Positions 14,508 through 36,190 of a stretch of DNA of 64,000 bases are shown here, piece by piece. The stretch is from contig JAXLYJ010000005.1 in the NCBI GenBank assembly GCA_046351515.1, forward strand, positions 306,892-370,891. The letters are read 5' to 3'. This DNA comes from Polyangiales bacterium. Its GTDB lineage: Bacteria; Myxococcota_A; Polyangia; Polyangiales; Ga0077539. The first letter of the stretch is position 1. Every line of letters begins with the position of its first letter. The notes beneath the pieces are model-generated. The model did not search any database. It saw only the letters and a list, made by a program, of their open reading frames with translations, and was not told the DNA's origin. The translations under genes were made by a program, and so were the position numbers.

Positions 14508-15745
14508 TCACGGACGAACGCGCACGCTCTGACCGAGCGCCGTCGTGATCGCCGGCATGCGCTCGCGGGAGATGCGCTCGTCGGCGTGGCGCATTGGAGC
14601 GACGTGCATGTCGCTGGAGAAATTCACGTTCCACGTCGCGACGGCGGACATCGAGACCAGAGAGAGCTGGCCGCCTTCGCCGACTTCGAACTGCACGCGC
14701 AGCAGCGCTCCGTCGCGCGTTCGCGGGTCGTACATGATCCCGAGCGGGTCGTCCGCCGCCCTCGCAGGAAGCCCTGCGTGCCATGCGCTTCCGAAATTCG
14801 AGAGCAGGTTGCCCAGCGAGTACGCGATCACCGCGTCTCCGCGCGGGCTCGTCGTGCGCTCGACCGTTTGCAAGACGCTCGGCCCCGCGCCCAGCACCAG
14901 GTCTGCTCCTGCGTCGATGAAGCGTCGCGCGAGCGCCCGCTGGTTGGCGTTGGGATTGGCCGCGCGATCGCGCCCCCAATGCGCGCACACGACCACGACC
15001 TCCGCGCGCTCGTGCGCGGTTCGCAGCGCGTCGAGCACTCGTTGGAGGTCCCTCGCGACGAACGCGCGCGCGTCAGCCGCACCAGGCGCAAACGCAGATC
15101 GCTCGGTGTATCCCAGCACTGCGACGCGCACTCCATCGCGCTCAGTGACCCACGGCGTGTACGCGTCGTCTTCCGAGCGGCCCGCGCCGATCGCCCCGAG
15201 CTGCGCTTGATCCAAGGCGTCGATGGTCTGCTCGAGTCCTTCGGGCCGTTGATCCATCGCGTGATTGGTCGCGAGGACGACCGCGTCGAAGCCCACTCGA
15301 GAGAGGTTGCGCGCGAACGTCGGATGCCCGCCGAGCGCAGGGTTGTCTCCGACCCACGGCGTGCGAGCGCTCACCGTCAGCGGCCCCTCGAGCGGAACGA
15401 TTGCCACCTCGCGCGGCGTGATGATCGGCGCCAGCCTGGTGAGCATGTACGCGAGCCCGCCCATCTCTCGGTACGACTGCGCGAGCTGAACGACGTGTCG
15501 ATGCAGCACGATGCTGCCCGTCGAGGTGACCACCACTCGGCGCGGACCCGCGGGTGCGGCGGGCGCGGCGTCTTCGATGGCGGCATCGGGCTCGTCGTTC
15601 GGCTCGACGACGTCGGGTACGGCGACCGCGGCTTCGACCACGGGCGAGGGCGCGGCGGCGTCGCGCGCCGGCGTTCGGCTGCACGCTGCGAACAACGTCG
15701 CCGCGAGCGGCGAGAGGCTTCGGTGATTCAACGCTCGAAACATCG
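14508..15745 (-). CDS. CapA/PgsA-family metallophosphatase-like protein (poly-gamma-glutamate capsule synthesis family)
   Basis: Internal start MFRALNH with lipoprotein-like signal. VLATNHAMD, VVVCAHWG and AYSLGNLLS are CapA (PF09587) motifs. Confidence 0.7.
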
Positions 15746-16681
15746 GTCTGGAATCTGTTGTTGGTGCCGAACGAGCTCCGTCGCTCGAACCAGTCGATCG
15801 GTCACAGGGTCGTGGTAGCCAGAGACCGCAGTCACGCCTTCGACCGCGGAGCTCCAGTAGCGATTGTGTCGGTGCATCCAGAGCTCGCGCGCGTACTTTC
15901 CGAAGACGCTCGCGAGCGAGATGGCGGGCTCGCTCGCGTCGCCGTCCATCACGAACGCCAGCGTTCCGACGGACGAGACGAAGTACTCGGATCGCTCGCG
16001 TCGCTCGCACTCGGTGCGCACCAACGCGAAGCGAGACGAGAGCGCCTCGTGGTACTTCGCGCGCGCGCCCACCTTTCCGAGCGAGGCTTCGACGAGCGCG
16101 TCTCTGGGGGCGAGCGCTTGCACGAGCGAGAGCATCGCGTCGAGGTCGACGTCCATGCGCGAGCGGCCTCGCGCCTTTTGCTCGTTGATCCGCCCTGCGC
16201 ACTGCACGGACACGCGCACCGCCTCGATCGCAAACCCGCGGTCTTTGAGCGCCTGCGCACGCTCGCGATCTTCGTCGCCGATCGCTCCCTCGAACGCGGG
16301 CAGCGGCACCGCGTCGTCGAAGCAGATCTTGGGCGCCACGCCTTCGGGGCAGAGCGCTCTGAGCGCCGCGCCGCTCTCGATCGTCGTGAGCCCTGCAAAT
16401 TCAGTGAGCGATCGCGGTTTCTCTCCGCAGTGAACCTCGAGCATCGCGAGCACGCGCGACTCGATCGCCTTCATGCTGCCGTGCGCGCAGAGCTCCTTGG
16501 AGTCGCCGATCCCCGCGCGCTCGACGGCGCGAAAGATCGCCTTTCGGTCGCGCAGCTTCGAGCGGTCGACGCGCACCCGCACTCCTGTCACGGTCATGGG
16601 CCCGAGCCGGGACCCGAGCCCGTTCTCGTCGACGCCCAACAGGATCGCTTCTTCGCTCACAACGGCGACGATGGGTACCAC
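15728..16681 (-). CDS. Divergent RNase HII-like protein
   Basis: N-terminal GVDENGLGSRLGPM and DSKEL align to RNase HII DEvGRGpl and DSKkL catalytic motifs. The rest of the 317-aa protein is diverged. Confidence 0.5.
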   Translation of the reverse strand: MVPIVAVVSEEAILLGVDENGLGSRLGPMTVTGVRVRVDRSKLRDRKAIFRAVERAGIGDSKELCAHGSMKAIESRVLAMLEVHCGEKPRSLTEFAGLTTIESGAALRALCPEGVAPKICFDDAVPLPAFEGAIGDEDRERAQALKDRGFAIEAVRVSVQCAGRINEQKARGRSRMDVDLDAMLSLVQALAPRDALVEASLGKVGARAKYHEALSSRFALVRTECERRERSEYFVSSVGTLAFVMDGDASEPAISLASVFGKYARELWMHRHNRYWSSAVEGVTAVSGYHDPVTDRLVRATELVRHQQQIPDRCFER

Positions 16682-18103: not shown

Positions 18104-18176
18104 GCTGGCGTAGCTCAATCGGTAGAGCGCCAGTTTTGTAAACTGGTGGTTGTGGGTTCAAGTCCCGTCGCCAGCT
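18104..18176 (+). tRNA. tRNA-Thr (anticodon UGU)
   Basis: Cloverleaf GCTGGCG..., anticodon loop TTTGTAA, T-loop TTCAAGT. No encoded CCA. First gene of a thrU-tyrU-glyT-thrT-tufB-like cluster. Confidence 0.8.
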
Positions 18177-18222
18177 CTGAAACAGCAGCACGCAGCGACA
18201 CTGGGCTTGCGTGACATTTTCT

Positions 18223-18308
18223 CGGAGAGTTGCCCGAGCGGCCAAAGGGAGCAGACTGTAAATCTGCCGGCTTATGCCTACGGTGGTTCGAATCCACCAC
18301 TCTCCACC
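18223..18308 (+). tRNA. tRNA-Tyr (anticodon GUA)
   Basis: GGAGAGT acceptor, anticodon loop CTGTAAA, long variable arm (class II), TTCGAAT T-loop, A73 plus CCA. Confidence 0.85.
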
Positions 18309-18316
18309 ACTACCAA

Positions 18317-18392
18317 CGCGGGAGTAGCTCAGTTGGTAGAGCGTCAGCCTTCCAAGCTGAATGTCGCGGGTTCGAATCCCGTCTCCCGCTCC
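18317..18392 (+). tRNA. tRNA-Gly (anticodon UCC)
   Basis: GCGGGAG acceptor, anticodon loop CTTCCAA, TTCGAAT T-loop, CCA encoded. Confidence 0.85.
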
Positions 18393-18396
18393 ACAC

Positions 18397-18472
<76 letters not shown>

Positions 18473-18790
18473 TCAACCGCGAGTCGGGAGGGACTCGCAT
18501 CGCGACACGAGCGCGACGATCGCAGCGAAAGCAGCGGTCCGATCGCTCATCGGTTCGCGTGCGAGCCGTCTGAGCTCTCTTCGCCTGTGCGAGCGCGAAG
18601 CGAGAGCGAGCATTCGCGGGACGTACGGCCACAGAGGCCGCGCTGCTCCGTCACGGTGACGGATTCAACAACACAGCGCTGACCTCTGTCGTCGATCACG
18701 TCGCGTACGCGTCGCAGCGTCGCGCGTTTCTGCATTGGGGCAGGGGCGGCGGCGAGGCCACCGTGCGCGCGCATCGCAGGAGAAGCTCCA

Positions 18791-19987
18791 ATGAGCAAGG
18801 AGCGGTTCGAGCGCAGGAAGCCCCACGTCAACGTGGGAACCATCGGCCACATCGACCACGGCAAGACCACGCTGACGGCGGCGTTGAGCGCAGTGCTCAA
18901 GCGTCGCTTCGGCGGAGCGTACGCAGTGAAGGACTACGCTGCGATCTCGAAGGGCGGAACCGTTCGCGACGAGACCAAGACGGTCACGATCGCCTCGGGT
19001 CACGCCGAGTTCGAGACGCGCAAGCGTCACTACGCGCACGTCGATTGCCCGGGCCACGCCGACTACGTGAAGAACATGATTACGGGCGCGGCGCAGATGG
19101 ACGGGGCGATCCTCGTCGTCTCGGCGCTCGACTCGATCATGCCTCAGACCCGCGAGCACGTTCTGCTCGCGCGTCAGGTGGGCGTCGATCGAATGGTCGT
19201 GTTCATCAACAAGTGCGACGCGGCCGAGGACCCCGAGATCATCGACCTCGTCGAAATCGAGGCGCGCGAGCTGCTCACGCGCAACGGCTTCGACGGCGAC
19301 GGAGCTCCTGTGATCCGCGGCGCTGCGTTGCCTGCGTTGCGCGGCGACGCGCGGTGGGAAGACTCCATCGTGGCGTTGGCCGAGGCGCTGGACGAGTACG
19401 TGGTTCCGCCCGAGCGCGACGAGCGCGGGGCGTTTCTGCTCTCGGTCGAGGACGTCCACTCGATCCGCGGCGTCGGAACGGTCGTCACCGGCCGCGTCGA
19501 GCGCGGCGTCGTTCGCCCCGGCGACAACGTTGAAATCGTGGGTCTCGAGGACCGCCCTCGAACGACGGTCGTGACCGGCGTCGAGATGTTCAAGAAGACC
19601 CTCGACGAGGCGATCGCCGGAGACAACGTCGGCGTGGTCTTGCGCAACGTGGCTCGCTCGGACATCGAGCGTGGCCAGGTCGTCGCCGCTCCTGGAAGCG
19701 TCACGGCGAAGCGCAAATTCACCGCTGAACTCTACGTCCTTACCAAGCAAGAAGGCGGACGGCACACTCCCTTCGAGAGCTCGTACCGCCCGCAGTTCTT
19801 CATCCGCACCGCCGACGTCACCGGAACGGTCCGCTTGCTCGACCGCGAGCACGCATCGCCCGGCGACACGGTCAACATCGAGGTCGAGCTCACCGAACCC
19901 ATCGCGCTTGAAGCGAGCACTCGCTTCGCGATCCGCGAGGGCGGCCACACCGTCGGCGCGGGCCGCGTGACGGCGCTCGTGAGCTGA
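18791..19987 (+). CDS. tuf: Elongation factor Tu
   Basis: 398 aa. Contains GHIDHGKTT (G1), DCPGHADY (G3), NKCD (G4) and all three EF-Tu domains. Confidence 0.97.
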
Positions 19988-19998
19988 GCACCCACGCC

Positions 19999-20039
19999 CG
20001 CAGGCTCGTGAAGGCGACGCATTCTTCATCGAGCCTGCG
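19999..20039 (+). terminator. Possible stem-loop downstream of tuf (10-bp arms cgcaggctcg/cgagcctgcg, 21-nt loop)
   Basis: Inverted repeat read directly from the sequence. The following tract is only weakly U-rich (cgtttctcc). Confidence 0.25.
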
Positions 20040-20074
20040 CGCGTTTCTCCTGCGCGTGACAGACTCGCGCACCG

Positions 20075-21109
20075 ATGGCCGTTGTTCGTCCCTCGACATG
20101 CGTAGCGATCGTGGGGGACGAAGCTGATGGAGCGCTGCGGCTCGTGCGCGCCGTCACTCAGCGCGCGGTGCGTTCGGTCGACGTGGCGATGGATTTCAAC
20201 CCGCCGATGGATGATGGCGGGGCGTTCGAGATCGTCGAGACCGACAAGCGTCGATACCTGTTCGTGCGAAGCGGAGATGACGGGCTCGCGGCGGTGCCCC
20301 GCACGTTCGACGCGGTGGTGCTCGCGTTGAGCGCCGAGCGTTCGGTGACGGCGAGGACGCGCGAGCTGGTATTCGAGCTCTCGTTGACGCATCGCGGACC
20401 GCTCGTCGTGGTGATCTCGGGCTGCGAGTCGGCGAGCGGCGAACCCCACCTCGTCGAGATCGAAGCGCGCGAGCTGCTCGATCAGTTCGGCTTCGACGCG
20501 GACGCAGTCGCGTGCGCGAGGATGCACGGGCTCGACGCGTCCGAGTGGCTCGCATGGCTCGACGATCACGCCTCCGTGTGCGCAGCACCACTGGAGCTCC
20601 CGCTGATCGCACGCGTCGAGCGGCAGAGCTATCGCGGCGCGATGCAGCTCGGCCTCGCGCAAGGCAGGATCGAACGGCGAGCGAAATACCAGGCACTCCG
20701 AGGTGCGATCGCGCTGCCGTGCGCGTTCGAAGAGAGCACGCTCGTCAGTCGAAGCGCGGCGTCATTTGGTGTCGGATCACTGGTCGCGCGCCCCAGGCAA
20801 ACGGGGCTCGAGCCGTCCGATTGGGTGGTGGACGCGTCCATCGCTCGCTCGATCCAGCGGCTTCGCGCGGCGCTGATCGTGACCGAGCCGCTCCTTGATG
20901 GATTGAGCGCCGAGCCGCTGTCGATCGAGTGGGGCAGCAATCGCGTGGACATCGCGCTCGAAGTGCAGCGCGTGTTCGCGGGTGATCGTCTCGCGCTGGT
21001 GACGGTGCGCTCGGACGAGCCGTTCTTCGCCATCGAGAGGGCGGGCGCGACGGTGGTTTCTCGGTTCGAGTTGGAGCGCATCGGCCGCGTTGTGTTCGCG
21101 TCGGACTGA
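20075..21109 (+). CDS. EF-Tu paralog with degenerate GTPase motifs (pseudo-GTPase, tuf-like)
   Basis: 344 aa, collinear with tuf. G1 GHIDHGKT is replaced by GDEADGAL, G3 DCPGH by RSGDD, and G4 NKCD by SGCE. Yet [10 protein letters not shown] is identical to tuf (28 of 30 nt identical). Domain 2 (PLIARVERQSYRGAMQLGLAQGRIERR against [25 protein letters not shown]) and domain 3 (FAIERAGATVVSRFELERIG against [19 protein letters not shown]) are clearly homologous. Confidence 0.6.
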   Translation: MAVVRPSTCVAIVGDEADGALRLVRAVTQRAVRSVDVAMDFNPPMDDGGAFEIVETDKRRYLFVRSGDDGLAAVPRTFDAVVLALSAERSVTARTRELVFELSLTHRGPLVVVISGCESASGEPHLVEIEARELLDQFGFDADAVACARMHGLDASEWLAWLDDHASVCAAPLELPLIARVERQSYRGAMQLGLAQGRIERRAKYQALRGAIALPCAFEESTLVSRSAASFGVGSLVARPRQTGLEPSDWVVDASIARSIQRLRAALIVTEPLLDGLSAEPLSIEWGSNRVDIALEVQRVFAGDRLALVTVRSDEPFFAIERAGATVVSRFELERIGRVVFASD

Positions 21110-21211: not shown

Positions 21212-21376
21212 ATGGGGTCCAAGAGTGATCGAGTCGCCGTGACGCTGGTCTGCAGCGTGTGCGGAACAAGAAACTACAAGACCTCGCGGTCGAAGCGGCC
21301 GGACGCAAAGCCGGTGGAGCTGAAGAAGTTCTGCAAGACGTGCAACGCTCACACGACGCACGTCGAGACGAAGTGA
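21212..21376 (+). CDS. rpmG: 50S ribosomal protein L33
   Basis: 54 aa, below the 60-aa cutoff of the ORF track. MGSKSDRVAVTLVCSVCGTRNYKTSRSKRPDAKPVELKKFCKTCNAHTTHVETK has the Cys4 zinc ribbon, and the KTxxN...KKFCxxCxxHxxHxETK signature is typical of L33. Confidence 0.85.
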   Translation: MGSKSDRVAVTLVCSVCGTRNYKTSRSKRPDAKPVELKKFCKTCNAHTTHVETK

Positions 21377-21405: not shown

Positions 21406-21478
21406 ACGGGACTAGCTCAGTCGGTAGAGCAGCGGATTCCAAATCCGCAGGTCGTGGGTTCGAGTCCCTCGTCCCGTG
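21406..21478 (+). tRNA. tRNA-Trp (anticodon CCA)
   Basis: ACGGGAC acceptor, D-loop AGTCGGTA, anticodon loop TTCCAAA, G73. Sits in the conserved rpmG-tRNA-Trp-secE-nusG arrangement. Confidence 0.85.
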
Positions 21479-21521
21479 CAAGAATCAATACCAGTTGTGA
21501 CCCTGTAGGAGCCTCCTAGCC

Positions 21522-21908
21522 TTGTCCACGCAGACTGAACAACGCGCGCCAGCCTCGCTCCAGCTCGGAGTGCAGAAGTACCTGTACACTGGGTATTTCG
21601 TGGGCGGCGTGATCGTCGCGTGGTTGGTTCACAACATCGTCGACAAGGCGTGGGACGGACACGACGGAGTCGCGTCGCTGATCGGCGTTGTCGCCGGCAT
21701 CCTCGCTGTCGTGTGGGCTTGGAAGAACGAGCGCATTCGCACGCTCTCCAAAGAGATCATCGACGAGCTCGCCGCGGTGAGCTGGCCGACGAAGCAAGAG
21801 ACGCAGACCGCGACGTTCATCGTGTTGGTGACGTCGGTCGTGGCGGCGGGCGTGATCTTCTTCATGGATCGCGTGTGGGGTTACTTGACCGAGTGGCTGG
21901 TCAAGTAG
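21522..21908 (+). CDS. secE: Preprotein translocase subunit SecE
   Basis: C-terminus ELAAVSWPTKQETQTATFIVLVTSVVAAGVIFFMDRVWGYLTEWL is the conserved SecE TM3 core. Two extra N-terminal TM segments. Confidence 0.85.
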   Translation: MSTQTEQRAPASLQLGVQKYLYTGYFVGGVIVAWLVHNIVDKAWDGHDGVASLIGVVAGILAVVWAWKNERIRTLSKEIIDELAAVSWPTKQETQTATFIVLVTSVVAAGVIFFMDRVWGYLTEWLVK

Positions 21909-22186: not shown

Positions 22187-22720
22187 ATGGCGATGCGGTA
22201 CTACATCATTCAGGCGTACAGCGGCTTCGAAGGCCAGGTGAAATCCAGCCTTCAAGAGCGCATCAAGAACGCAGGCATGCAGAAGTTCTTCGGCGAGATC
22301 CTCGTTCCGTCGGAAGAAGTGCAGGTCAACCGCAACGGCAAGTCGCGCACGGAGAAGCGCCGCTTCTATCCCGGCTACGTGTTCATCCAGATGGAGATGA
22401 ACGAGCAGACCTGGCACCTCGTGAAAGAGACGCCGAAGGTGACTGGCTTCATCGGCGATCAGAACCCGCAGGTCGTGAAGGACAAGGATATCCAAGTCAT
22501 CCTCGACCAGATGGAGAAGGGCACGTCGCCGACCGCGGTGCGCGCGCACTTCGACGTGGGCGATCAGGTCCGAGTGATCTCTGGCGCGTTCGCGAACTTC
22601 TCGGGGACCGTCGAAGAAGTGAAGGCCGACCGACAGAAGGTGAAGGTCATCGTTCCGATCTTCGGCAGGCCGACGCCGGTGGAGCTCGGCTACAACGAGG
22701 TCGAGAAAATCACCGCGTGA
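22187..22720 (+). CDS. nusG: Transcription termination/antitermination factor NusG
   Basis: 177 aa. N-terminal NGN (YIIQAYSGFEGQV...FYPGYVF) and C-terminal KOW (GDQVRVISGAFANFSGTVEEV) domains. Confidence 0.95.
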   Translation: MAMRYYIIQAYSGFEGQVKSSLQERIKNAGMQKFFGEILVPSEEVQVNRNGKSRTEKRRFYPGYVFIQMEMNEQTWHLVKETPKVTGFIGDQNPQVVKDKDIQVILDQMEKGTSPTAVRAHFDVGDQVRVISGAFANFSGTVEEVKADRQKVKVIVPIFGRPTPVELGYNEVEKITA

Positions 22721-25682: not shown

Positions 25683-26876
25683 CTACGACGTCGAGCGCCG
25701 CTCGAACGGCTCGAGGCGACGACGCAGCGTTTCGTCATCGAGGCCGAAGTCGCTGAGCGCGTGCTTGTGCGCGCCGTGCCGGTGCTTGGGATGCTCGGCC
25801 GCGTACCGCCTCGCGTCGGCGAAATGCGCCTCGCCCCAGCCCATCGCGAAGCGCTCGTTGATCGCGCGAACGACGGACACTGGATCGCTCGTCAGCGCTT
25901 CGTACTCGACGTCGAGCCGCTGTTCAGCAGGCAGCCACGATCGTGCTTCGAGCGACGCGCGCAGGGTGCGTTCGCAGTGATCGAGCGCCTCCCGCCCGAC
26001 CGCGCGCGGGTCGGACTCGCGCACGATCGGCAGGCGAACGCCGTGAATCAAGCTGCACAACGACGAGACGCACGCGTCGAGCGCGCGGTGGCACTCGACG
26101 ATGCGCGCGTCGGGGTACGCCTCGATCAGCGCTCGCAAGAACAACACGTGCGAGGGATCTTTGAGCACCCACGTTGGTTGCTCGTCCCGCTGCCAGAGCT
26201 GCAGCAGCGATCGATGCTCGCGGTACGCGAAGCTCACATCTGCGGTCGCGAGCCAGCGCTGATAGCGCTCGGCGGGGGGGCTCGCGGGGAAGATTCCGCT
26301 GTTCTCGAGGATGAAATGGCACTCGTCTGGGCTCGTCGCTTCGACGTCGTGGATGAGCCGGACGTGAGGCGCCGCTGCGTAGAAGAGCGCCATGTCACGC
26401 GCGCACTGCTCGACGCGGTCGTCGTCAGCGCGGTCTGCGATGGGGCGATACAGCTCGAACAGCTTCGGCGAGCGCGCTCCCTCGATCGAGGCCAACATGC
26501 GCTGCAACAGCGTGGTGCCCGTTCGAGGCAGGCCGAGGATGAAGATCGGCGGCGCGATCGGGCGTGTGGATCCGGCGGCCGATCGCGCGCGCTCGACGTG
26601 CAGCCGATTGATTAGCGCGCGCAACACTCCCTGCCGTGTGAGCTTCGCTCCGAGCCACGTGAGCTGGTCGGTCTCAGCGACAGACTCGAGCAGCAGTTGG
26701 ATCGGTGTCTCGAAGTCGCGCGCGCCGAAGTCACTGAGATTCGTCACACGCCGCGCTTCGGCGCAGAGCTCGTCGAGCGTGGATGAGTTGGTGTTCAAAC
26801 CGATTCGTCGGCCTTGTTCGAGGACGGTGTTGGCGACGCGAAACCATCGCGGAAGATCGCTCTTTTGCCAGGTCAT
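25683..26876 (-). CDS. Sulfotransferase-family protein (PAPS-dependent, Sulfotransfer_3-like)
   Basis: 397 aa. ILGLPRTGTTLLQRML is the 5'-PSB PAPS-binding loop. Later RxxxDP and HRALDACVSS regions are consistent with bacterial sulfotransferases. Confidence 0.65.
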   Translation of the reverse strand: MTWQKSDLPRWFRVANTVLEQGRRIGLNTNSSTLDELCAEARRVTNLSDFGARDFETPIQLLLESVAETDQLTWLGAKLTRQGVLRALINRLHVERARSAAGSTRPIAPPIFILGLPRTGTTLLQRMLASIEGARSPKLFELYRPIADRADDDRVEQCARDMALFYAAAPHVRLIHDVEATSPDECHFILENSGIFPASPPAERYQRWLATADVSFAYREHRSLLQLWQRDEQPTWVLKDPSHVLFLRALIEAYPDARIVECHRALDACVSSLCSLIHGVRLPIVRESDPRAVGREALDHCERTLRASLEARSWLPAEQRLDVEYEALTSDPVSVVRAINERFAMGWGEAHFADARRYAAEHPKHRHGAHKHALSDFGLDDETLRRRLEPFERRSTS

Positions 26877-27072
26877 CTGTTGTCCGAGGGAGTCTTTGCG
26901 GCTGCACGGATCGCCGCCGTTCGCGCACGCGCCGCTGTGCGGCGTCGCTCGATGATCGTCGCGAGTGAACCATCTTCATCATCAACGCGAGCGCGTTCGT
27001 AACGATCGGAAATGCCGCGTCACGCGCTGTTCGCGCTCGACGCTCGCGTGTTGCGGCATACGCGCAGTCACG

Positions 27073-28461
27073 GTGTTTACGTCGCTCTTCAAGCGCTCGA
27101 ATCGCGCGTCGCTCCCGCGGGTCGCGCGACTCTCATCGAAGGTCCTTCACGCTGCCGTCGACGCGCACGGCGCGCACGCGTGGGCGGTGCTCGCGCGTGA
27201 GCACGGCGGCTCGTTTGTGGCATCGACGGGCGAGCTCTGCACTGCCGAGCCCGCGCTCGTCGAGTCGTTCTTGATGCACCGCGCGCACACCGAACACCGC
27301 GCGAAAGCGTACCGGCTCGCTGCGAAGGCGATGCCCGGCGCGGACGGGCTGCTCTTTCAAGACGGAGAGCCGTGGAAGGAGCAGCTCCGCGCGGTGATGC
27401 CGATCTTTCATCACGAGCGCATCGACGCGTTTGCGGCGACCGTCGCAGACACGCTTCGCACGTTTGCGCGACGCGCTCCCGATGGAGCGGACCTGTACCA
27501 CGCGATCACCGAGGCGAGCGCGGAGATCGCGCTGAAGGTCCTGCTCGGGCTCGATCCAGCGAGCGGTCCGGGCCTCGCGGTTCGCGAGCAGCTCGTTTCG
27601 TACAAGCTCGAGACGATGCGCGTCGATCGTTCGATGCGACTCGATGTGCTCGGCGGTCCGCCGATCGAAGCGGTGCTCGCCGCGCCGCGCGTCCTGCGCT
27701 CGATGCTGACGTTGCGCGATCGAGTGGCGATCATTCGCGACGAGCTCGCGCGAGCGAGGCGCGCCGGGATGCTCGATGACACGATCGTCGCGGTCGCCAA
27801 CGTCGCCGCGGACGAGCAGCGCTTCGCGGATTGGATCAATCACCTGTACGGCGCGTACAACGCCGTCGACTACGAGCTCACCGCGGCGCTCGTGTGCCTC
27901 GCGCGTGCGCCCGAGTGGATCGAGGCGCTGCGAGACGAGCTCGACGCGCAGCCGGCCGCCGCTCGCGCGGATCATCGCTCGCTCGCTGCGCTGCCGGTGT
28001 TGCGCGCGATCGTGCGAGAGACCGAGCGCGTGTGCCCCGTCGCAAACGCCGTGTTTCGTCAGGCGGGAGAGCGCTTCGAGTGCCAAGGCGAGTCCTTCGC
28101 CGAGGGCACGCAGGTGATGCTCAACCTCTATGCGCTCATGCGTCACCCTGACCATTGGGAGGAGCCGGATCGGTTCGACCCGAGCCGCTGGATCGGTGAG
28201 CGCGAGGCGAAGATCGCGGAGCGAGCGTTTGTTCCATTTCTCGCGGGGCCGCGACGATGCTTCGGGCGGACGCTGGCCGAGCTCGTGTTGCACGTCGGGC
28301 TGTCGACGATCGTGCGCGAGTTCGACGTCGTTGCGCGCGCCGATGGCGTCGACGTCACCGGACATTTCATCCCGAGATTCGAGCGCCCGATCGCGTTCGA
28401 GTTGCGCGAGCGCGTGAGCTCACCCTCGTCGATCGGCTCGCGCTCCGCGGATCGATGCTGA
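27073..28461 (+). CDS. Cytochrome P450
   Basis: ORF 26965..28461. FVPFLAGPRRCFGRTLAELVL is the heme-thiolate loop (FxxGxRxCxG). ETERVCP is the ExxR K-helix motif and AVDYELTAA is I-helix-like. Start uncertain: GTG at 27073 is proposed. Confidence 0.8.
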   Translation: MFTSLFKRSNRASLPRVARLSSKVLHAAVDAHGAHAWAVLAREHGGSFVASTGELCTAEPALVESFLMHRAHTEHRAKAYRLAAKAMPGADGLLFQDGEPWKEQLRAVMPIFHHERIDAFAATVADTLRTFARRAPDGADLYHAITEASAEIALKVLLGLDPASGPGLAVREQLVSYKLETMRVDRSMRLDVLGGPPIEAVLAAPRVLRSMLTLRDRVAIIRDELARARRAGMLDDTIVAVANVAADEQRFADWINHLYGAYNAVDYELTAALVCLARAPEWIEALRDELDAQPAAARADHRSLAALPVLRAIVRETERVCPVANAVFRQAGERFECQGESFAEGTQVMLNLYALMRHPDHWEEPDRFDPSRWIGEREAKIAERAFVPFLAGPRRCFGRTLAELVLHVGLSTIVREFDVVARADGVDVTGHFIPRFERPIAFELRERVSSPSSIGSRSADRC

Positions 28462-29804
28462 GCAGGTCGGCCATGACGAGTGACTCTGTCGTTCGGGCGA
28501 GCGCGACCGCGCGGCGCTCTGCGCTGTTTGTGTGCATTCCGCTCGTGGGGCACTGCAACCCGTTGATCGCGCAGGCCAAGGCGCTGCGCGCGCGTGGATT
28601 TCGCGTGGCGATCGCGTCGTTCGCCGAGCTGCGCGCGCACGTCACCGCCGCGGGCGTCAGCTTCGTCGACCTCGGGCCCACGCCCGGAGGCGCGACGGCG
28701 ATGAGCGATGTCTTCGAGCGAGCGAGCGCGGCGCGGAGCTTCTTCGCCTCGTCGAAGTTGCTGCTCGAGTGGACGCTCTCGCTGTGGACGCCGCTGTTCG
28801 ACGCGCTCGTCGCGCAGATGCGAGTCGACCGTCCGTCGGTCTTGATCGCGGACCTGATGACGAGCGGAGCGATGGACGCCGCCGAGGCGCTCGACGTGCG
28901 GCTCGTGGTCAACAACGCCGACCTGCTGCCGGCGCTTTCGCTAGGGCTTCTGCCGGTGGCGGACGATGTTCCGCCGCTGTTTTGGGGGCGATCGAGGCGC
29001 TCGATCGGCGCCAAAGAGAAGCTCGCGATCGCCGCCCTTCGATCGATCGCCGTCCGTGAAGCGACCCGCACGGTGGGCGCGACCTTGAATCAACTGCGGC
29101 GGAGTCGAGGGCTGTCGGCGCGCGATGTACACGCGCGGCTCGCGGGAACGTTTGTGATCACGAATTCAACGTTCGCCATCGAGTACCCGCGTCCGTTGCG
29201 GGCGAGCATGGTGATGCTCGGACCGATGCTCGATCGCGACGAGCCTCGGGAGCTCGGCGAGCTCGGCGACTGGTTGAATCGCCCGGAGCCGGTCGTGTAC
29301 GCGAACCTCGGGACCATCGTCGCGCCTGACCGTGCGCTGCTCGATCGGATGAACGACGCGTTTGCGAGGCTCTCTGCGCGGGTCCTGTGGACGCTGCGCC
29401 CTGCGCTGCGCGAGCGATTGCGGCGGCCGGTGGCGAGCAACGTTCGGCTCGTCGAGCGCGTGCCGTCGATGCGAGCGGTGCTCGCGCACGAGCGGGTTCG
29501 TGCGTTTGTGAGTCACTGCGGCGTCAACTCGGCGCACGAGTCGCTGTGGGAAGGGTGCCCCATCGTGGGGCTCGGCGTGTTCGCCGACCAAGACGACATG
29601 GCGTGGAGAGTCGAGGACGCGGGCGTCGGCGTGAGGCTCGATTCGCGCAAGGCGAGCGCGATCGAGATCGCTTCGGCGATCGAGCGCGTGATGCGCGACG
29701 AGTCGATGCGCGCGCGCGCTCGCGAGGTGCGCGCGAGCTTCGAGGCAGCCGGCGGGGCAGAAATGGCGGCGTTGCTCATCGAGCAGTGCGCCGCGCGCGA
29801 ATGA
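28455..29804 (+). CDS. GT1-family UDP-glycosyltransferase (macrolide-GT/CrtX/Rgt-like)
   Basis: ATG overlaps the P450 stop by 7 nt. N-terminal FVCIPLVGHCNPLIAQAKAL and C-terminal FVSHCGVNSAHESLWEGCPIVGLGVFADQ (PSPG-like donor box) are GT1/MGT signatures. Confidence 0.8.
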   Translation: MLSRSAMTSDSVVRASATARRSALFVCIPLVGHCNPLIAQAKALRARGFRVAIASFAELRAHVTAAGVSFVDLGPTPGGATAMSDVFERASAARSFFASSKLLLEWTLSLWTPLFDALVAQMRVDRPSVLIADLMTSGAMDAAEALDVRLVVNNADLLPALSLGLLPVADDVPPLFWGRSRRSIGAKEKLAIAALRSIAVREATRTVGATLNQLRRSRGLSARDVHARLAGTFVITNSTFAIEYPRPLRASMVMLGPMLDRDEPRELGELGDWLNRPEPVVYANLGTIVAPDRALLDRMNDAFARLSARVLWTLRPALRERLRRPVASNVRLVERVPSMRAVLAHERVRAFVSHCGVNSAHESLWEGCPIVGLGVFADQDDMAWRVEDAGVGVRLDSRKASAIEIASAIERVMRDESMRARAREVRASFEAAGGAEMAALLIEQCAARE

Positions 29805-29820
29805 AAGACAGAGAGGAACA

Positions 29821-32079
29821 GTGACGATGAGCGACGAGCTTGCCCGCGGAACAGCGGCGATTCCTTCGGACTGGCCTGGGCGAGGGCCGATCGACCTCGC
29901 GGTGCACGACCTGCCTCACGCTTCGTCTTCGGTCGAGTGGTGGTACGTCAACGCGCACGTCGAGACGGACAAGGGCGCGAAGCTCTCGGTGTTCGCGAGC
30001 TTCTTCGTCGTGACGGTGTCCGACGAGGACGCCGCGCGAACGGGCAGCAAACATCGGCACTTCGTGACGTGGGCGGTGATCGACCCCGAGCGCAGAGCGT
30101 ACGTGGCCGAGGCGCTGCTCGACCCGAAGACGCCCGCCGATGGCATCGAGCGGCTCGATCGCGGAGAAGGTTCGACGGACGTCCGAATTCGGCGCGCGAT
30201 GAGGGAGATGTTCGAGCGAGGAGGCGTTCCGAAGCCAGATCGTCTGCTGCGCACATCGAGCGTGGCGACGGATCGACTGGCGATCGCGATGGACGCGCAG
30301 CGGTTTACGAAGCTCGACGACGGGAGGTATCGCTTGGAGCTCGCGTCGAGCGACGGCGCGACGGGCGCGACGCTCGATTTCTCCCTCGAGAAGCCGGTGA
30401 TTCGCCACGGAGACGACGGCGTCGTCGCGGGCTTCACGGTGAAGCGAATGTTCTACTACTTCGTTCCTCGCTGCGGCGTGAGCGGCACCGTTCGCGTCGC
30501 GGGCGAAGAGCAGCGCGTGGTGAGCGGTCGCGGCTGGTACGACCACGAGTTTGGCGAGCACGCGTCTGGCGCGGCCGGCAAAGAGCAGTCCGTCGCGTGG
30601 AACTGGATCTCAGCGCAGCTCGATGACGGCACCGACGTGAGCGCGTACGAGACCTACGACGAGGGCGATGGAAACAAGCCGCTCGAGCGCCGCGTGGTGA
30701 TCATTGCCGCGGACGGAGCACGCACGGTGCACAGTGATTTCACGCTCGAATCGTCGGAGCCGTGGACGAGCACACGCACGTTCAACGCGTACCCGACGCG
30801 TTGGAAGCTCACGGTGCCTTCGGCTGACCTCGTGATCGACGCGCGCGCGGCGTTCGTGGCCCAGGAGTTTTGCACGCTGCTGTCCCCGCCGGCGTTTTGG
30901 GAGGGACGCATGGACATCCGCGCGAATCGCGCGGGCATCGAGGTGCAAGGCGTCGGGTTCGTCGAGCGGTCGGGGATGCAAGAGTCGACCACGCTCGATC
31001 GCTTCTTCACTGCGGTCGGTCGCGAGTCGCGTCGCGCGGTGGATCAGCTCATCCCGGCGAGGCTCGAACGGCAAGACCTCGTGCGACTGTTCGCGAGCGA
31101 GCGTCACGCGGATCACATGAACGGGGTCGACGCCGAGCAGCTCTCGGCGGTGCTCACTCGTCCGGTTCGCGACATCGCGCTGCGCGGCGGAAAAGCCTGG
31201 CGCTCGTTCGCGCTGCTCGCCTCGCTCGACATGGTGGGCGGCGACTCCGAGCGGCACCGGCACTGGCTCGCGTTTCCTGAGCTGCTGCACACGGGGAGCT
31301 TGATCCTCGACGACGTTCAGGATCGAAGCGAGGTGCGTCGCGGCGGTCCGTCGCTGCACCGGTTGATCGGCGAGCCGCTCGCGATCAACGCGGGCAGCGC
31401 GTGCGCGTACCTCGCGCTGCTCGTCGGGCTGAAGGACGAGATGACGGCGGACGTTCGCGTGCGCGTTCACGAAGAGTTCTTTCAGGCGCTTCGCGCGGCG
31501 CACGCGGGGCAGGCGCTCGACATCGCAGGGTTGCATCACTTGCTTCCCGTGGTCGTCGAGAGCGGCGACGGAGCGCTGCTCGAAGAGCGGGTGAGGGCGA
31601 TCCATCGACTGAAGTCTGCGATTCCGCCGGCGGCGCTCGCGCGCGCGGCGGTGCACATTGCCGGAGGAACGCGGGAGCAAGAAGCGGCGCTCGACGCGCT
31701 CTTCGACGCGTTCGGCGTGGCGTTTCAAGGGATGGACGACGTGCTCAACCTCCGCGGCTTCGAGGGCAACCTCAAGGATCGCGGCGAGGACGTCGCTGAA
31801 GGAAAGGTCACCGCGCCCGTGGCGAAGGCGATGAGCCGGCTCGCGCTCGAGGGGCGCCGCGAGCTGTGGGCCATTCTCGATTCGAGCACGAGGGACCGCG
31901 CGAAGATCGACCGAGCGATCGCGTTGATGGAGTCGTGCGGCGCGATCGACGCGGTCGAGCAAGAAGCGCGTTCGTTGATCGAGACGACGTGGGAGCGCGT
32001 GGCGCCGGTGTTCGAGGACTCGCTCTCGAAGCTGATGATCCGCTCGTTCGGCTGGTACATCCTCGAGCGGCACTACTGA
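29821..32079 (+). CDS. Fusion protein: N-terminal CrtC/AttH-like carotenoid 1,2-hydratase-like lipocalin domain plus C-terminal trans-polyprenyl diphosphate synthase domain
   Basis: GTG start with AGAGAGGA RBS. N-terminal SVEWWYVNAHV...SFFVV matches the CrtC/AttH signature. C-terminal LILDDVQDRSEVRRGGPSLH (FARM), GQALD, FQGMDDVLN (SARM variant DDxxN) and AEGKVT match the isoprenyl diphosphate synthase fold. Confidence 0.65.
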   Translation: MTMSDELARGTAAIPSDWPGRGPIDLAVHDLPHASSSVEWWYVNAHVETDKGAKLSVFASFFVVTVSDEDAARTGSKHRHFVTWAVIDPERRAYVAEALLDPKTPADGIERLDRGEGSTDVRIRRAMREMFERGGVPKPDRLLRTSSVATDRLAIAMDAQRFTKLDDGRYRLELASSDGATGATLDFSLEKPVIRHGDDGVVAGFTVKRMFYYFVPRCGVSGTVRVAGEEQRVVSGRGWYDHEFGEHASGAAGKEQSVAWNWISAQLDDGTDVSAYETYDEGDGNKPLERRVVIIAADGARTVHSDFTLESSEPWTSTRTFNAYPTRWKLTVPSADLVIDARAAFVAQEFCTLLSPPAFWEGRMDIRANRAGIEVQGVGFVERSGMQESTTLDRFFTAVGRESRRAVDQLIPARLERQDLVRLFASERHADHMNGVDAEQLSAVLTRPVRDIALRGGKAWRSFALLASLDMVGGDSERHRHWLAFPELLHTGSLILDDVQDRSEVRRGGPSLHRLIGEPLAINAGSACAYLALLVGLKDEMTADVRVRVHEEFFQALRAAHAGQALDIAGLHHLLPVVVESGDGALLEERVRAIHRLKSAIPPAALARAAVHIAGGTREQEAALDALFDAFGVAFQGMDDVLNLRGFEGNLKDRGEDVAEGKVTAPVAKAMSRLALEGRRELWAILDSSTRDRAKIDRAIALMESCGAIDAVEQEARSLIETTWERVAPVFEDSLSKLMIRSFGWYILERHY

Positions 32080-32099
32080 GCGAGAGCGAGAACGACACC

Positions 32100-33143
32100 G
32101 TGATCGCGACATCGCTCAGCGCTGAGGACGACCTTCGCCACGCACACGGCGACGATCCTCACTGGAACGAATCGTTCTATTTCAATTTCTTCGACGCCGA
32201 CCGCGGCCTCGGCGGCTTCACGCGCATCGGGTTTTCTCCGTCGCGCGGCGTGGTGGACATGGTCCTGTGTGTCTATCGCCCGAGCGGCGGCGTGCTCGTC
32301 GTGCGCAGGGTCGCGCCGTTTTCAGCGCTGAGTGAGCGGCGCTCGCTCGTCGAAGTGGGGCCGCTGCGATTCGAGTGCGTCGAGCCTCTGCATCGTTGGC
32401 GGCTGTTCTTCGCGGGCGACGCGTTTTCGATCAGCGATCCAGCGGTCGTGCTCGCCCTGACGAGGCACGGGCTCGTGGATGTCGCGCGGGCGGGGCTCGC
32501 GATCGATCTGGAGTTTACCGCGCTTCATCCAGTGTACGTGTTTCCGAAGCTGCCGCAGCGGAGGATGTCGCTCGGCGAGTCGCTCGGCGCTCGGCGGTCG
32601 TTTGGGGACATCGTCGCGCGGGCCAGGAGGGTTCCGGCGCGGCTCGCGAGCGCCGTGAAGATGCGAGACAACCATCACTTCGAGCAGGCGGGGCGCGTGC
32701 GCGGGCTCGTCGCGATCGACGGCGAGCGAGTCTCGATCGACGGCACGGGGATGCGCGATCGATCATGGGGCCTTCGCGATTGGACGGTGCCCACGCGCTG
32801 GTGGTGGATCAACACGCAGTTCGGCGACGACCTCGCGTTCAACGCGTTTCGCATTCACCTGTTCGGCTACGACGCGTGGGGCGGCTACGTGTGGAACAAC
32901 GGTCGTCTCAGCACGCTCGGCGATTGGAAGCGCCACGAGCGACAAGACGGCACCGCGTTGCTCACGTTGCCCGCCGAAGACGGCGCGGTGCACGAAGTGA
33001 TCGTCGAGCGACTCATGCCCGTCCCGTTCTCGATCAGCGAGCCCGGGTTCGACACGGTGCTCGACGAGGCGATCGCGAGGTTTCGATGGAACGGGCGGGC
33101 GTCGCTCGGCATCGACGAGAAAATGGAGCGTGTTTTTCCATGA
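32100..33143 (+). CDS. Hypothetical protein, possibly second CrtC/AttH-like beta-sandwich domain protein
   Basis: ORF 31866..33143. Proposed GTG 32100 start just after the upstream stop. HWNESFYFNFFD...WWWINTQFGDD aromatic-rich beta motifs. Its stop overlaps the next start (ATGA). Confidence 0.4.
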   Translation: MIATSLSAEDDLRHAHGDDPHWNESFYFNFFDADRGLGGFTRIGFSPSRGVVDMVLCVYRPSGGVLVVRRVAPFSALSERRSLVEVGPLRFECVEPLHRWRLFFAGDAFSISDPAVVLALTRHGLVDVARAGLAIDLEFTALHPVYVFPKLPQRRMSLGESLGARRSFGDIVARARRVPARLASAVKMRDNHHFEQAGRVRGLVAIDGERVSIDGTGMRDRSWGLRDWTVPTRWWWINTQFGDDLAFNAFRIHLFGYDAWGGYVWNNGRLSTLGDWKRHERQDGTALLTLPAEDGAVHEVIVERLMPVPFSISEPGFDTVLDEAIARFRWNGRASLGIDEKMERVFP

Positions 33144-35830: not shown

Positions 35831-35842
35831 GCGCTGCGCGGC

Positions 35843-36190
35843 TCAGTTCTGCTGGCTCGCGGGCAGCTGCTCGGCCATGAACTCGAGCCCCTGACGGGTG
35901 ATGAGGAAGCGGACCGTTCCGGTTCCGCGCTCGGTGTCGATCGTGGCTTCGAAGGCAGGGCCGCCGACGGTGCCGAGCATCATGTCGCGTCGGAGGTTGT
36001 CGATCTTGCCCTGAACGAGCGGAGCGTTGATCTTGGCGCTGCCTGTGTCCGTTCGGTACAAGTCCCAAGCGGCGTCGAACAGGATGCGAGCGAGCGAAGA
36101 GCTGAGCGGCTGTGTGCTGAAGAGCACGGAGATCAGCCGCCATTTGAAGTCGTCGTCGGGGGAGGGGGCGTCGTTCGAGTCGTCTTGCAT
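35843..36190 (-). CDS. Hypothetical small protein (115 aa) upstream of and divergent from rpoB
   Basis: ORF only. No motifs recognised. Codon usage is consistent with the genome. Confidence 0.35.
   Translation of the reverse strand: MQDDSNDAPSPDDDFKWRLISVLFSTQPLSSSLARILFDAAWDLYRTDTGSAKINAPLVQGKIDNLRRDMMLGTVGGPAFEATIDTERGTGTVRFLITRQGLEFMAEQLPASQQN

Follow-up and report, generated by a model that had tools for sequence, protein, structure and literature searches.

A likely EF-Tu-derived pseudoGTPase encoded directly downstream of tuf in a Polyangiales bacterium

Few bacterial proteins are as conserved and abundant as EF-Tu, and gene conversion normally prevents duplicates of its gene from diverging. 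An open reading frame of 344 codons (positions 20075 to 21109, + strand) lies next to tuf in a Polyangiales genome and encodes a protein that resembles EF-Tu with its GTPase motifs altered. We were interested in what this protein is, whether it is maintained and how it might act. The window analyzed here is the whole 64-kb stretch of DNA around the gene; it belongs to a metagenome-assembled genome, as do all relatives with which it was compared. The source organism is an uncultured, soil-type myxobacterium. The gene order was tRNA(Thr-Tyr-Gly-Thr)-tuf-[ORF]-rpmG-tRNA-Trp-secE-nusG-rplKAJL, all on the + strand. The leader tRNAs of this tufB-type operon, tRNA-Thr(tgt), tRNA-Tyr, tRNA-Gly(tcc) and tRNA-Thr(ggt), were located by ARAGORN at 18104..18472, and the identical quartet precedes tuf in L006, L011 and L045. 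The tuf gene (18791..19987, 398 aa) carries Pfam GTP_EFTU, D2 and D3 and scores 584 bits against TIGR00485 (cut-off 522). As a preliminary description of the locus had placed it, the ORF follows tuf within the tRNA-tuf-secE-nusG cluster, after a spacer of 87 nt and before rpmG (21212..21376; Pfam Ribosomal_L33, E 1e-17), whose product is 94% identical to the copy in L001. Beyond rpmG come tRNA-Trp(cca) (21406..21479, ARAGORN), secE (21522-21908) and nusG (22187-22720), both called as ORFs whose orthologs in L003 and L045 carry Pfam SecE and NusG, and then rplK, rplA, rplJ and rplL (up to 25517), also ORF calls, with Pfam L11, L1, L10 and L12 in the orthologs from the same two loci. Only two EF-Tu-like regions were present within the window, which contained no second canonical tuf; a str operon downstream of rpoC was not found there either.

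The relationship of the ORF product to EF-Tu was examined by profile comparison. Against the product of its own tuf, BLASTP gave an E value of 1e-9. The family profile aligned with an EF-Tu profile in hhalign at a probability of 99.6% (E 8e-25) over 339 collinear columns, in agreement with the collinearity described before. Residues 1-171 alone matched 32 EF-Tus at 98.9% (E 1e-17), spanning EF-Tu 9-203, and a search with the family profile recovered EF-Tus at E 1e-17. For 10 of 12 family members, the best-scoring EF-Tu came from a tuf of the clade itself. In the multiple alignment the protein shares 19% identity with EF-Tu, and its length falls 54 aa short, close to the loss of about 55 residues noted earlier. 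An AF2 model reached a pLDDT of 87.4 and a pTM of 0.87, with values below 50 at aa 36-49 only; the alignment used comprised the family plus EF-Tu rows, so this three-domain model gives no independent test of the EF-Tu hypothesis. From the single sequence AF2 gave a pLDDT of 37, which was uninformative. With the model as Foldseek query, every top match was an EF-Tu (E about 1e-21, TM up to 0.67). The predicted fold is that of a G domain (P-loop NTPase, TRAFAC), as in class I pseudoGTPases, and the three-domain architecture of EF-Tu may be retained. These results indicate that the ORF very probably encodes a maintained EF-Tu-derived pseudoGTPase. It would have arisen when the tuf of this clade was duplicated, in the simplest case in tandem at the tufB locus, and in some lineages the gene was presumably relocated later.

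Alignment of the motifs bore out the earlier statement that every nucleotide-binding motif is destroyed. Within the G-domain remnant (aa 1-170, 20075..20584; delimited by hhalign, motif alignment and AF2), the P-loop GHIDHGKT of EF-Tu is replaced by GDEADGAL (aa 14-21, 20114-20137), the switch II motif DCPGH by RSGDD (aa 65-69, 20267-20281) and NKCD by SGCE (aa 115-118, 20417-20428). Switch I is shortened to a MDxNPP loop (MDFNPP at 20189-20206) that is specific to the family and absent from EF-Tu. The losses extend beyond this one protein: the P-loop K-[ST] is missing from every family member, none has a conserved D..G-H in place of DxxG plus the catalytic His, and the N and K of NKxD are gone in 12 of 12 members, with the D kept in 3. 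Thus G1, G3 with its catalytic His, G4 and G5 are lost, G1, G4 and G5 throughout the family. TIGR00485 scored 13.5 bits on the protein (cut-off 522.4) and Pfam GTP_EFTU 12.6 bits (threshold 26.5, aa 76-153 only); Pfam D2 and D3 gave no match, leaving no Pfam domain above threshold. The motif losses predict a protein that would be unable to bind GTP and could not act as a GTPase.

The family to which the protein belongs was found to be small. An exhaustive phmmer search yielded 8 representatives and the profile search 10 members; in all, about 12 sequence clusters were obtained, every one from Polyangiales/Myxococcales-type assemblies and without G motifs, with full-length ORFs of 333-372 aa. 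The ortholog P0002 in L001 is likewise 344 aa long, 63% identical and free of indels, in the same tuf-ORF-rpmG synteny. A scan of 241 million metagenome records added one locus, L041, equivalent to L007, and the family is genuinely rare. No account of an EF-Tu-like pseudoGTPase from bacteria, myxobacteria included, emerged from literature searches. The EF-Tu-derived pseudoGTPases thus form a small family, unnamed until now and confined to a Polyangiales/Myxococcales-type subclade. The position inside the operon, earlier taken to be fixed, turned out to vary: the gene stands beside tuf in 5 lineages (same strand, directly downstream, spacers of 50-87 nt) and elsewhere in 5; half of the members are unlinked to tuf or any translation gene, which counts against the explanation favoured below, and in two related genomes tuf is followed by rpmG with no ORF between.

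The adjacent tuf was also compared. It keeps intact G motifs and 164 of 190 EF-Tu invariants, and it is unusually divergent, with 65-66% identity to the EF-Tu of Sorangium and Polyangium; the pseudo-copy probably descends from it. In a sister lineage, the tuf of the same operon (4721-5950 in L003, 4709-5938 in L004) is itself degenerate by motif alignment: His84 is changed to Leu, NKxD reads NFCD and GGRHTPF is gone. Like the ORF, this gene erodes canonical EF-Tu features under selection (dN/dS 0.36) in the same clade and operon; unlike the 344-aa family, it keeps the P-loop (GHAGHGKT) and three Pfam domains, together with 103 of 190 invariants. Judged by these motifs, it is best described as an intermediate stage outside the family, a rare snapshot of the route toward a pseudo-enzyme. 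Because it has no catalytic His, we infer that this lineage has a second tuf elsewhere. The tRNA-tuf locus of this Polyangiales subclade could be a fast-evolving, graded series of EF-Tu pseudo-enzymes, running from a divergent intact EF-Tu through the sister lineage's EF-Tu devoid of His84 and tRNA motifs to the nucleotide-dead 344-aa family, which would intercept factors that recognize the helix-D surface, such as interbacterial toxins, phage proteins or EF-Tu-binding antibiotics, or titrate EF-Ts or L7/L12 and so throttle translation. We consider this extended reading unlikely; if true, it would provide the first bacterial EF-Tu mimic serving as decoy or regulator.

Residues conserved across the family suggested where the pseudoGTPase might act. 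Invariant and near-invariant positions are concentrated in aa 1-170 and densest at aa 126-143, and the invariant S86, A87, S90, E128, E130, R132, E133, G139 and D143 gather in the most conserved block (20330..20503). This block holds the equivalent of helix C (SAERSVTARTRE, 20330-20365), that of helix D (20450-20479; AF2 helix at aa 124-137) and GFDAD (20489-20503), so that the pattern under selection on the helix C/D face reads SA.RSV..TR..., then a 10-residue stretch, then GFDAD. EF-Ts and the C-terminal domain of L7/L12 both contact EF-Tu at helix D, and the L148A substitution cuts ribosome binding 5-fold (PMC9825190, PMC5770553); L148 aligns with family residue L126. Because helix D docks EF-Ts and L7/L12 in EF-Tu, a protein-protein binding mode is proposed: the pseudoGTPase would act through its helix C/D face independently of nucleotide, mimic nucleotide-free EF-Tu, engage a partner that recognizes helix D (EF-Ts, L7/L12 or some other protein), and thereby modulate EF-Tu recycling or recruitment. 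EF-Ts also touches domain III of EF-Tu, and domain III is the least conserved part of the pseudoGTPase, which speaks against this mechanism; so does the possibility that conservation of helices C and D partly reflects a folding constraint of the G-domain core and not a binding surface. Taken by itself, the helix-C/D mechanism is put forward tentatively, as a possible rather than a probable mode of action. For the best explanation as a whole, a maintained EF-Tu-derived pseudoGTPase working through helix-C/D protein binding, we estimate a probability of roughly 0.55.

One alternative is that the ORF is a decaying, lineage-specific tuf duplicate or a chance reading frame in high-GC DNA. Its extreme erosion relative to EF-Tu would fit, as would the rarity of the family and a dN/dS above that of the housekeeping neighbours, and many long spurious ORFs do occur in high-GC genomes; here, the opposite-strand ORF 18665-20662 (665 aa) and others were rejected as spurious by codon-position GC content. 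By the same measure, the pseudoGTPase gene shows a coding-type profile (GC1/2/3 of 0.72/0.49/0.81) that matches neighbouring genes. Between the window and L001, not one indel or stop was found across 344 codons at a dS of 0.76, and dN/dS was 0.38 (Fisher p = 3e-12); when neutral evolution was simulated to the 30% divergence observed, 0.3% of runs left the ORF free of stops. The family gene gave a dN/dS of 0.49 both for L003 versus L004 and for L008 versus L007. Degeneration also fails to account for the full-length ORFs in about 12 diverged clusters and for conserved motifs such as MDxNPP that EF-Tu does not have. These substitution patterns point to a gene kept by selection and not decaying, as had been proposed on first sight, and the pseudogene or chance-ORF reading is very improbable and already largely refuted. 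Another reading retains the domain II and III functions: the beta-barrels had been described as conserved and able to bind aminoacyl-tRNA, and the protein could on that account be a GTP-independent regulator bound to tRNA or the ribosomal A site. The EF-Tu-collinear architecture and the predicted beta-rich C-terminal domains agree with this, and the best EF-Tu matches of the profile search were mitochondrial EF-Tus of nematodes, whose tRNA ligands are unusual (PMC4342817), although this is likely a word-index artefact. The domain II-like beta region (aa 176-253, 20600..20833) was modelled as beta strands at a pLDDT of about 90 from the alignment that included EF-Tu, but its sequence is almost wholly eroded, with 5 of 43 EF-Tu-invariant residues surviving, and alone it did not align significantly in hhalign (E 0.13), although its best match falls at the right place. 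The domain III-like region (aa 257-344, 20843..21106) aligned weakly by itself (probability 45%, E 2e-4) in register with EF-Tu 304-394; it keeps 5 of 53 invariants and is the least constrained part (dN/dS 0.63, against 0.25-0.32 upstream, window versus L001). Neither GGRHTPF, which contacts the T-stem, nor GRGTVVTGR is present, and deletions have removed the switch regions from which the acceptor-end pocket is built. With the residues eroded in this way, tRNA binding is probably lost as well; the claim of conserved tRNA-binding barrels fails, the idea of a tRNA-binding regulator loses its basis, and we hold this reading to be quite improbable.

Rates of divergence bear on two further readings. 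Between the window and L003, identity falls to 48% for tuf and about 37% for the family gene, whereas the flanks remain at 79% (RNase HII-like), 91% (secE), 94% (nusG) and 95% (rplA); the tuf/pseudo-tuf pair gave dN/dS values of 0.36-0.49, compared with 0.09-0.14 for neighbours. Such speed would suit an arms-race module with a decoy or guard, in which the pseudo-copy, perhaps together with the fast-evolving tuf, displays the surface of EF-Tu, above all helix D, and titrates or senses toxins, phage proteins or antibiotics that target EF-Tu. An Rhs toxin, an ADP-ribosyltransferase acting on EF-Tu, anchors at helix D (PMC9825190), and EF-Tu is known as a target or cofactor of CDI toxins and Q-beta replicase, PDB complexes of which were among the structure matches. 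However, pairwise dN/dS stays below 1, giving no direct sign of positive selection, and relaxed constraint explains the rapid divergence equally well. The pseudoGTPase has retained neither the P-loop Asp hit by the Rhs toxin nor the sites attacked by Lit/Doc, and toxin, immunity or defence genes were adjacent in none of the contexts examined. No PADLOC match at E <= 0.1 was obtained for the ORF, for one unlinked family member or for that member's neighbour, and a defence system recognizable by homology in PADLOC-DB was thus ruled out. A decoy role is distinctly unlikely on this evidence; if the protein were a decoy or titrator, it would show that elongation is controlled or protected at a further, new level. 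Alternatively, the pseudoGTPase could be a dedicated partner that complexes with the product of the upstream tuf in a pseudoenzyme-enzyme pair and regulates or stabilizes it, the two genes co-evolving. This would explain its same-strand position immediately 3' of tuf in the 5 linked lineages, the acceleration of both genes in the same lineages, and an upstream tuf in L003/L004 that has itself lost the catalytic His, the NKxD Lys and GGRHTPF. It does not fit the five other lineages, in which the family gene lies far from tuf, or MAG-91, where tuf is directly followed by rpmG and the family gene is on a separate contig, and a dedicated partnership seems improbable. For a protein associated with translation, a dN/dS of 0.4-0.5 is high, which counts against the explanation favoured above.

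Among known systems, bacterial EF-Tu itself (TIGR00485; GTP_EFTU + GTP_EFTU_D2 + GTP_EFTU_D3) shares with the pseudoGTPase an apparently collinear domain order, helices C and D and the core strands of the G domain, and differs in having the G motifs, a full switch I, the tRNA-binding motifs and 54 aa more. The EF1A-family adaptors Ski7 and Hbs1 would offer a functional parallel, their GTPase-like domain being mainly a binding platform; they are eukaryotic, whereas the pseudoGTPase derives independently, in bacteria, from EF-Tu itself. Ski7 and Hbs1 carry N-terminal extensions. The GTPase-like domain of Ski7 was crystallised with bound GTP (PDB 4zke), unlike the pseudoGTPase, which has neither the P-loop Lys nor the Thr. 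The actEF-Tu or EF-Tu3 of Streptomyces was the sole clearly distinct bacterial EF-Tu-like subfamily in a 2015 survey of translational GTPases, where it is treated as a stress-expressed translation factor resisting EF-Tu-targeting antibiotics (PMC4342817). It resembles the present family as a lineage-restricted, divergent extra paralog that has escaped concerted evolution with the main tuf, but it is described as having intact GTPase motifs with substitutions at antibiotic-binding sites, and the motifs of the pseudoGTPase are destroyed. Class I pseudoGTPases such as the N-terminal domain of AAGAB (PMC12490416) likewise combine a G-domain fold, lost nucleotide motifs and a presumed protein-protein role; AAGAB is not EF-Tu-derived, and the nucleotide-free state is, in our case, a prediction from sequence. 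Literature searches found no EF-Tu-derived bacterial pseudoGTPase. To our knowledge, none of the known class I pseudoGTPases derives from EF-Tu. A maintained EF-Tu derivative without the motifs that hold GTP and tRNA would be to bacteria what repurposed EF1A paralogs such as Ski7 are to eukaryotes, and with it the pseudoGTPases would gain a member that descends from a translational GTPase. Because its sole retained surface contains the docking helix, it could also serve as a natural separation-of-function variant for studying the EF-Ts/L7-L12 interface.

The 10-residue stretch that is identical in the tuf and ORF products had attracted attention for differing at only 2 of 30 nucleotides. The 28/30 identity was confirmed, but the significance attached to it was not. 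Unlinked tuf/family pairs in one genome also show 28/30, and the nucleotide flanks of the stretch are only 13-21/36 identical. Because unlinked pairs show the same value, it is no sign of gene conversion or of recent duplication; the identity reflects codon bias plus amino-acid conservation.

Signals for expression were inspected between tuf and the ORF. The start chosen here is ATG 20075; the NCBI start, GTG 20111, would cut into the conserved beta-1 strand. A stem-loop lies in the spacer (19994..20045, followed by GCGCGTTTCTCC) with a fold of -44.5 kcal/mol, which is not significantly more stable than shuffled sequence (z -1.9), and a consensus terminator scan did not call it. Its stem is preserved in L001 with both arms changed (CAGGCTCG/CGAGCCTG versus CAGGTCC/GGACCTG), and it may be a partial terminator, an attenuator or a processing site. 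An AGGAG motif stands 8 nt upstream of the tuf ATG, and no Shine-Dalgarno motif precedes the ORF. Because of the stem-loop after tuf and the ORF's want of such a motif, the pseudoGTPase would probably be translated from transcripts that read through from tuf, and in far smaller amounts than EF-Tu.

The ORF (window 20075-21109, plus strand, 344 aa) is located in a Polyangiales metagenome-assembled genome, within the gene order tRNA-Thr/Tyr/Gly/Thr (18104-18472), tuf (18791-19987), ORF, rpmG (21212-21376), tRNA-Trp (21406-21479), secE, nusG, rplK, rplA, rplJ and rplL. Because the window is about 68% G+C, long spurious ORFs are plentiful on both strands. The codon-position G+C of the ORF was 0.72/0.49/0.81, a pattern typical of real genes that matches those of tuf (0.68/0.45/0.87) and of the ribosomal protein genes. 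The NCBI record (P0001) describes a hypothetical protein of 332 aa starting at GTG 20111, 12 codons downstream of ATG 20075. These 12 codons (20075-20113; strand beta-1, ..CVAIVG..) are conserved in orthologs and paralogs. ATG 20075 is likely the true start, because initiation at GTG 20111 would cut off this conserved first strand.

Curated models scarcely detected the ORF: no Pfam family reached its threshold (GTP_EFTU, E 0.11), and NCBIfam gave only weak sub-threshold EF-Tu matches (TIGR00485, 13.5 bits versus a cut-off of 522). BLASTP against the neighbouring EF-Tu showed 29% identity over EF-Tu residues 75-276 (E 1e-9). Homology was settled by profile methods. The alignment of 12 family members (the ORF and its EF-Tu-derived relatives without G motifs) matched the EF-Tu alignment with a probability of 99.6% and E 8e-25 over 339 collinear columns in all three domains, bearing out the collinearity proposed in the preliminary description. 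In profile-profile comparisons of single parts, the N-terminal 171 residues gave 98.9% (E 1e-17), domain III aligned in register (E 2e-4), and domain II was not significant, its best match nonetheless being correctly placed. The motif losses had been read correctly: GHIDHGKT has become GDEADGAL, DCPGH has become RSGDD and NKCD has become SGCE. In the family alignment, the P-loop Lys-Ser/Thr, the DxxG-His and the NK of NKxD were retained in no member. In 27 canonical EF-Tus, 190 positions reach at least 95% invariance; of these, 25/94 of the G domain, 5/43 of domain II and 5/53 of domain III are present in the ORF. It has neither GGRHTPF nor GRGTVVTGR, and constraint is lowest in domain III (dN/dS 0.63). 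The earlier suggestion of conserved tRNA-binding beta-barrel domains is not supported by these results.

A ten-residue stretch was correctly reported to be identical to the tuf copy, with 28/30 nucleotides identical. Recent duplication or conversion was rejected as its source, because four further tuf/family pairs, among them an unlinked one in MAG-91, also show 26-28/30 identity, and the flanking codons are unrelated. Identical amino acids and strong GC3 codon bias explain the identity.

The same tuf-ORF-rpmG order was found in L001 (Logan DRR438532), whose ortholog is also 344 aa and is 63% identical without an indel. The Nei-Gojobori dN/dS for this pair was 0.38 at dS 0.76, with a significant synonymous excess (Fisher p = 3e-12), and the reading frame survived in only 0.3% of neutral simulations at equal divergence. 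Two further ortholog pairs each gave 0.49. An exhaustive phmmer search over 1.8 billion representatives returned eight diverged relatives, a 109-aa fragment and seven proteins of 333-372 aa, with 27-56% identity in the matched stretch, and a profile search brought the family to about 12 clusters. All members with a named source come from Myxococcales, Polyangiales or 'Deltaproteobacteria' MAGs. The intact L001 ortholog, the dN/dS value and the simulations argue strongly against a decaying pseudogene, and the earlier view of a neofunctionalised gene that is not decaying is upheld; the original observation was essentially right, its tRNA-binding and fixed-position parts aside. The comparisons indicate, with a probability of about 0.9, that the ORF is a real, selectively maintained EF-Tu-derived pseudoGTPase. 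By sequence its product falls within the class I pseudoGTPase definition (concept: PMC12490416), and it lies outside EF-Tu proper: tests for each of the defining catalytic features all came out negative. A 2015 survey of translational GTPases recognized one distinct bacterial EF-Tu-like subfamily only, actEF-Tu/EF-Tu3 of actinomycetes, treated there as a stress-expressed translation factor (PMC4342817). No description of an EF-Tu-derived pseudoGTPase in bacteria was found in the literature, and the family would be a previously undescribed one. Its nearest functional analogues are Ski7 and Hbs1, eukaryotic paralogs of the EF1A family that serve as binding platforms.

The fold of the ORF product was predicted with AF2 from an alignment of family members and EF-Tus (pLDDT 87.4, pTM 0.87). 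The model contains an alpha/beta N-terminal domain and two beta-rich domains, and the ten-residue stretch lies in a helix at residues 124-137, corresponding to helix D. The top 50 Foldseek matches were all EF-Tu (E about 1e-21), with TM up to 0.67 against GTP-form structures. The model supports the three-domain architecture and is not independent proof of it, since EF-Tu was part of the input and a model from the single sequence gave no usable information. Low confidence was limited to residues 36-49, the switch I remnant bearing the family-specific MDxNPP. This MD[FI]NPP motif (window 20189-20206, aa 39-44) replaces EF-Tu switch I and is kept in most members; the P0007/P0009/P0014 subgroup has a deletion of the entire segment.

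The positions invariant across the family cluster in the G-domain remnant, in strand beta-4 plus helix C (DAAVLVLSA.RSV..TR), helix D with the next loop (15 residues) and the LD..A turn. Helix D of EF-Tu is the docking site for EF-Ts and the L7/L12 C-terminal domain, and L148A slows association of the ternary complex five-fold (PMC9825190, PMC5770553); in our mapping to E. coli numbering, family residue L126 aligns with L148. Based on these conserved blocks and the role of helix D, the product could be an EF-Tu mimic free of nucleotide: having given up GTP and tRNA binding, it would interact with other proteins through the retained helix C/D face, and might titrate EF-Ts, L7/L12 or a different helix-D-binding partner, or recruit it. 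This model is our best current inference and a tentative one. An Rhs toxin that ADP-ribosylates EF-Tu also anchors on helix D (PMC9825190), and PADLOC defence models gave no match for the ORF; a toxin or phage decoy role is a less likely rival reading. A role as partner of the adjacent EF-Tu, next to which only some lineages carry the gene, is another.

Five lineages carry the gene between tuf and rpmG (the window and loci L001/L002, L003 = L006, L004/L005 and L044) and five carry it elsewhere (L008, L007/L041, protein P0008, L042 and L043), so the position is not fixed as had been thought. In two relatives, L011 (MAG-91) and L045, tuf is directly followed by rpmG, which is taken to be the ancestral state. 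For 10/12 family members, the top score against 32 EF-Tus went to one from the same clade. The family and the local tuf also have clade-specific states in common: Ser in SA.[DR]S[IV], GFD.D, and a ten-residue replacement of LVEMEVRELL. The most economical origin we infer is duplication of the clade's own tuf, simplest in tandem at this locus, with later relocation in some lineages. In lineages without linkage to tuf, the gene has a neighbour of 463-481 aa in convergent orientation with no Pfam hit on record (L008 9051-10496 and L007 1025-2416, both minus strand), followed by a Ser/Thr kinase. It has a possible remote match to the family G-domain remnant (hhalign probability 82%, E 1e-5; segments KREYVFVR..., GGFDADDCPVV and LALALDERA) and may be a further, more eroded paralog.

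The 87-nt tuf-ORF spacer carries a GC-rich stem-loop (19994-20045) followed by GCGCGTTTCTCC. The stem is retained in L001 with substitutions on both strands. TTTCTCC and GTGACAGACT, downstream of the stem-loop and a few bases 5' of the ATG, are retained in L001 as well. The stem-loop was not statistically exceptional and was not called in the terminator scan; it may act in attenuation or processing. No Shine-Dalgarno-like motif precedes the ORF, and tuf has AGGAG. The stem-loop and the missing motif suggest that the ORF is probably expressed at a low level by read-through from tuf.

The upstream tuf is evolving abnormally fast. It is intact and scores above the TIGR00485 cut-off; it retains just 164/190 invariants, however, and has 65-66% identity to Sorangium/Polyangium EF-Tu and 57-62% to EF-Tus of other phyla, which share 63-93% among themselves. 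In switch I it has K-T-V-T-I, not R-G-I-T-I, a variant that is clade-wide, as it is also present in the L045 tuf, which is otherwise canonical. The RNase HII-like gene, secE, nusG, rplK and rplA are 79-95% identical between the window and L003 (nusG 94%, secE 91%), and tuf 48%. The tuf at the tufB position of this sister lineage (L003 4721-5950, equal to L006 6721-7911; L004 4709-5938) is degenerate: the catalytic His (DCPGL), the NKxD Lys (NFCD), GRGTVVTGR and GGRHTPF are gone, 103/190 invariants remain, and its scores fall below every EF-Tu family cut-off (339-346 bits versus 449-522; TIGR00485, 339 versus 522). It is still constrained (dN/dS 0.36) and appears to be midway towards a pseudo-EF-Tu. 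Given what is established about EF-Tu catalysis, an EF-Tu without His84 is unable to serve as sole elongation factor, which implies another, canonical tuf elsewhere in the L003 and L004 genomes. A second tuf was not found for the window's genome; the window holds only two EF-Tu-like regions.

Upstream of the tRNA-tuf cluster, window 15728-16681 (minus strand) encodes a 317-aa protein whose match to the RNase HII Pfam model is confined to the N-terminal ~50 residues. The gene is kept there in L003, L004 and L011 (70-79% identity), accompanied by a TPR protein in L003 and L004. An insertion of ~11 kb (25683-36190) separates rplL from rpoB, which are normally contiguous and are so in L045. It carries a sulfotransferase (25683-26876, minus strand), a cytochrome P450 (26965-28461), a UDP-glycosyltransferase (28257-29804) and a CrtC-lipocalin/polyprenyl synthetase fusion (29821-32079), and looks like a small terpenoid/carotenoid-type tailoring cluster.
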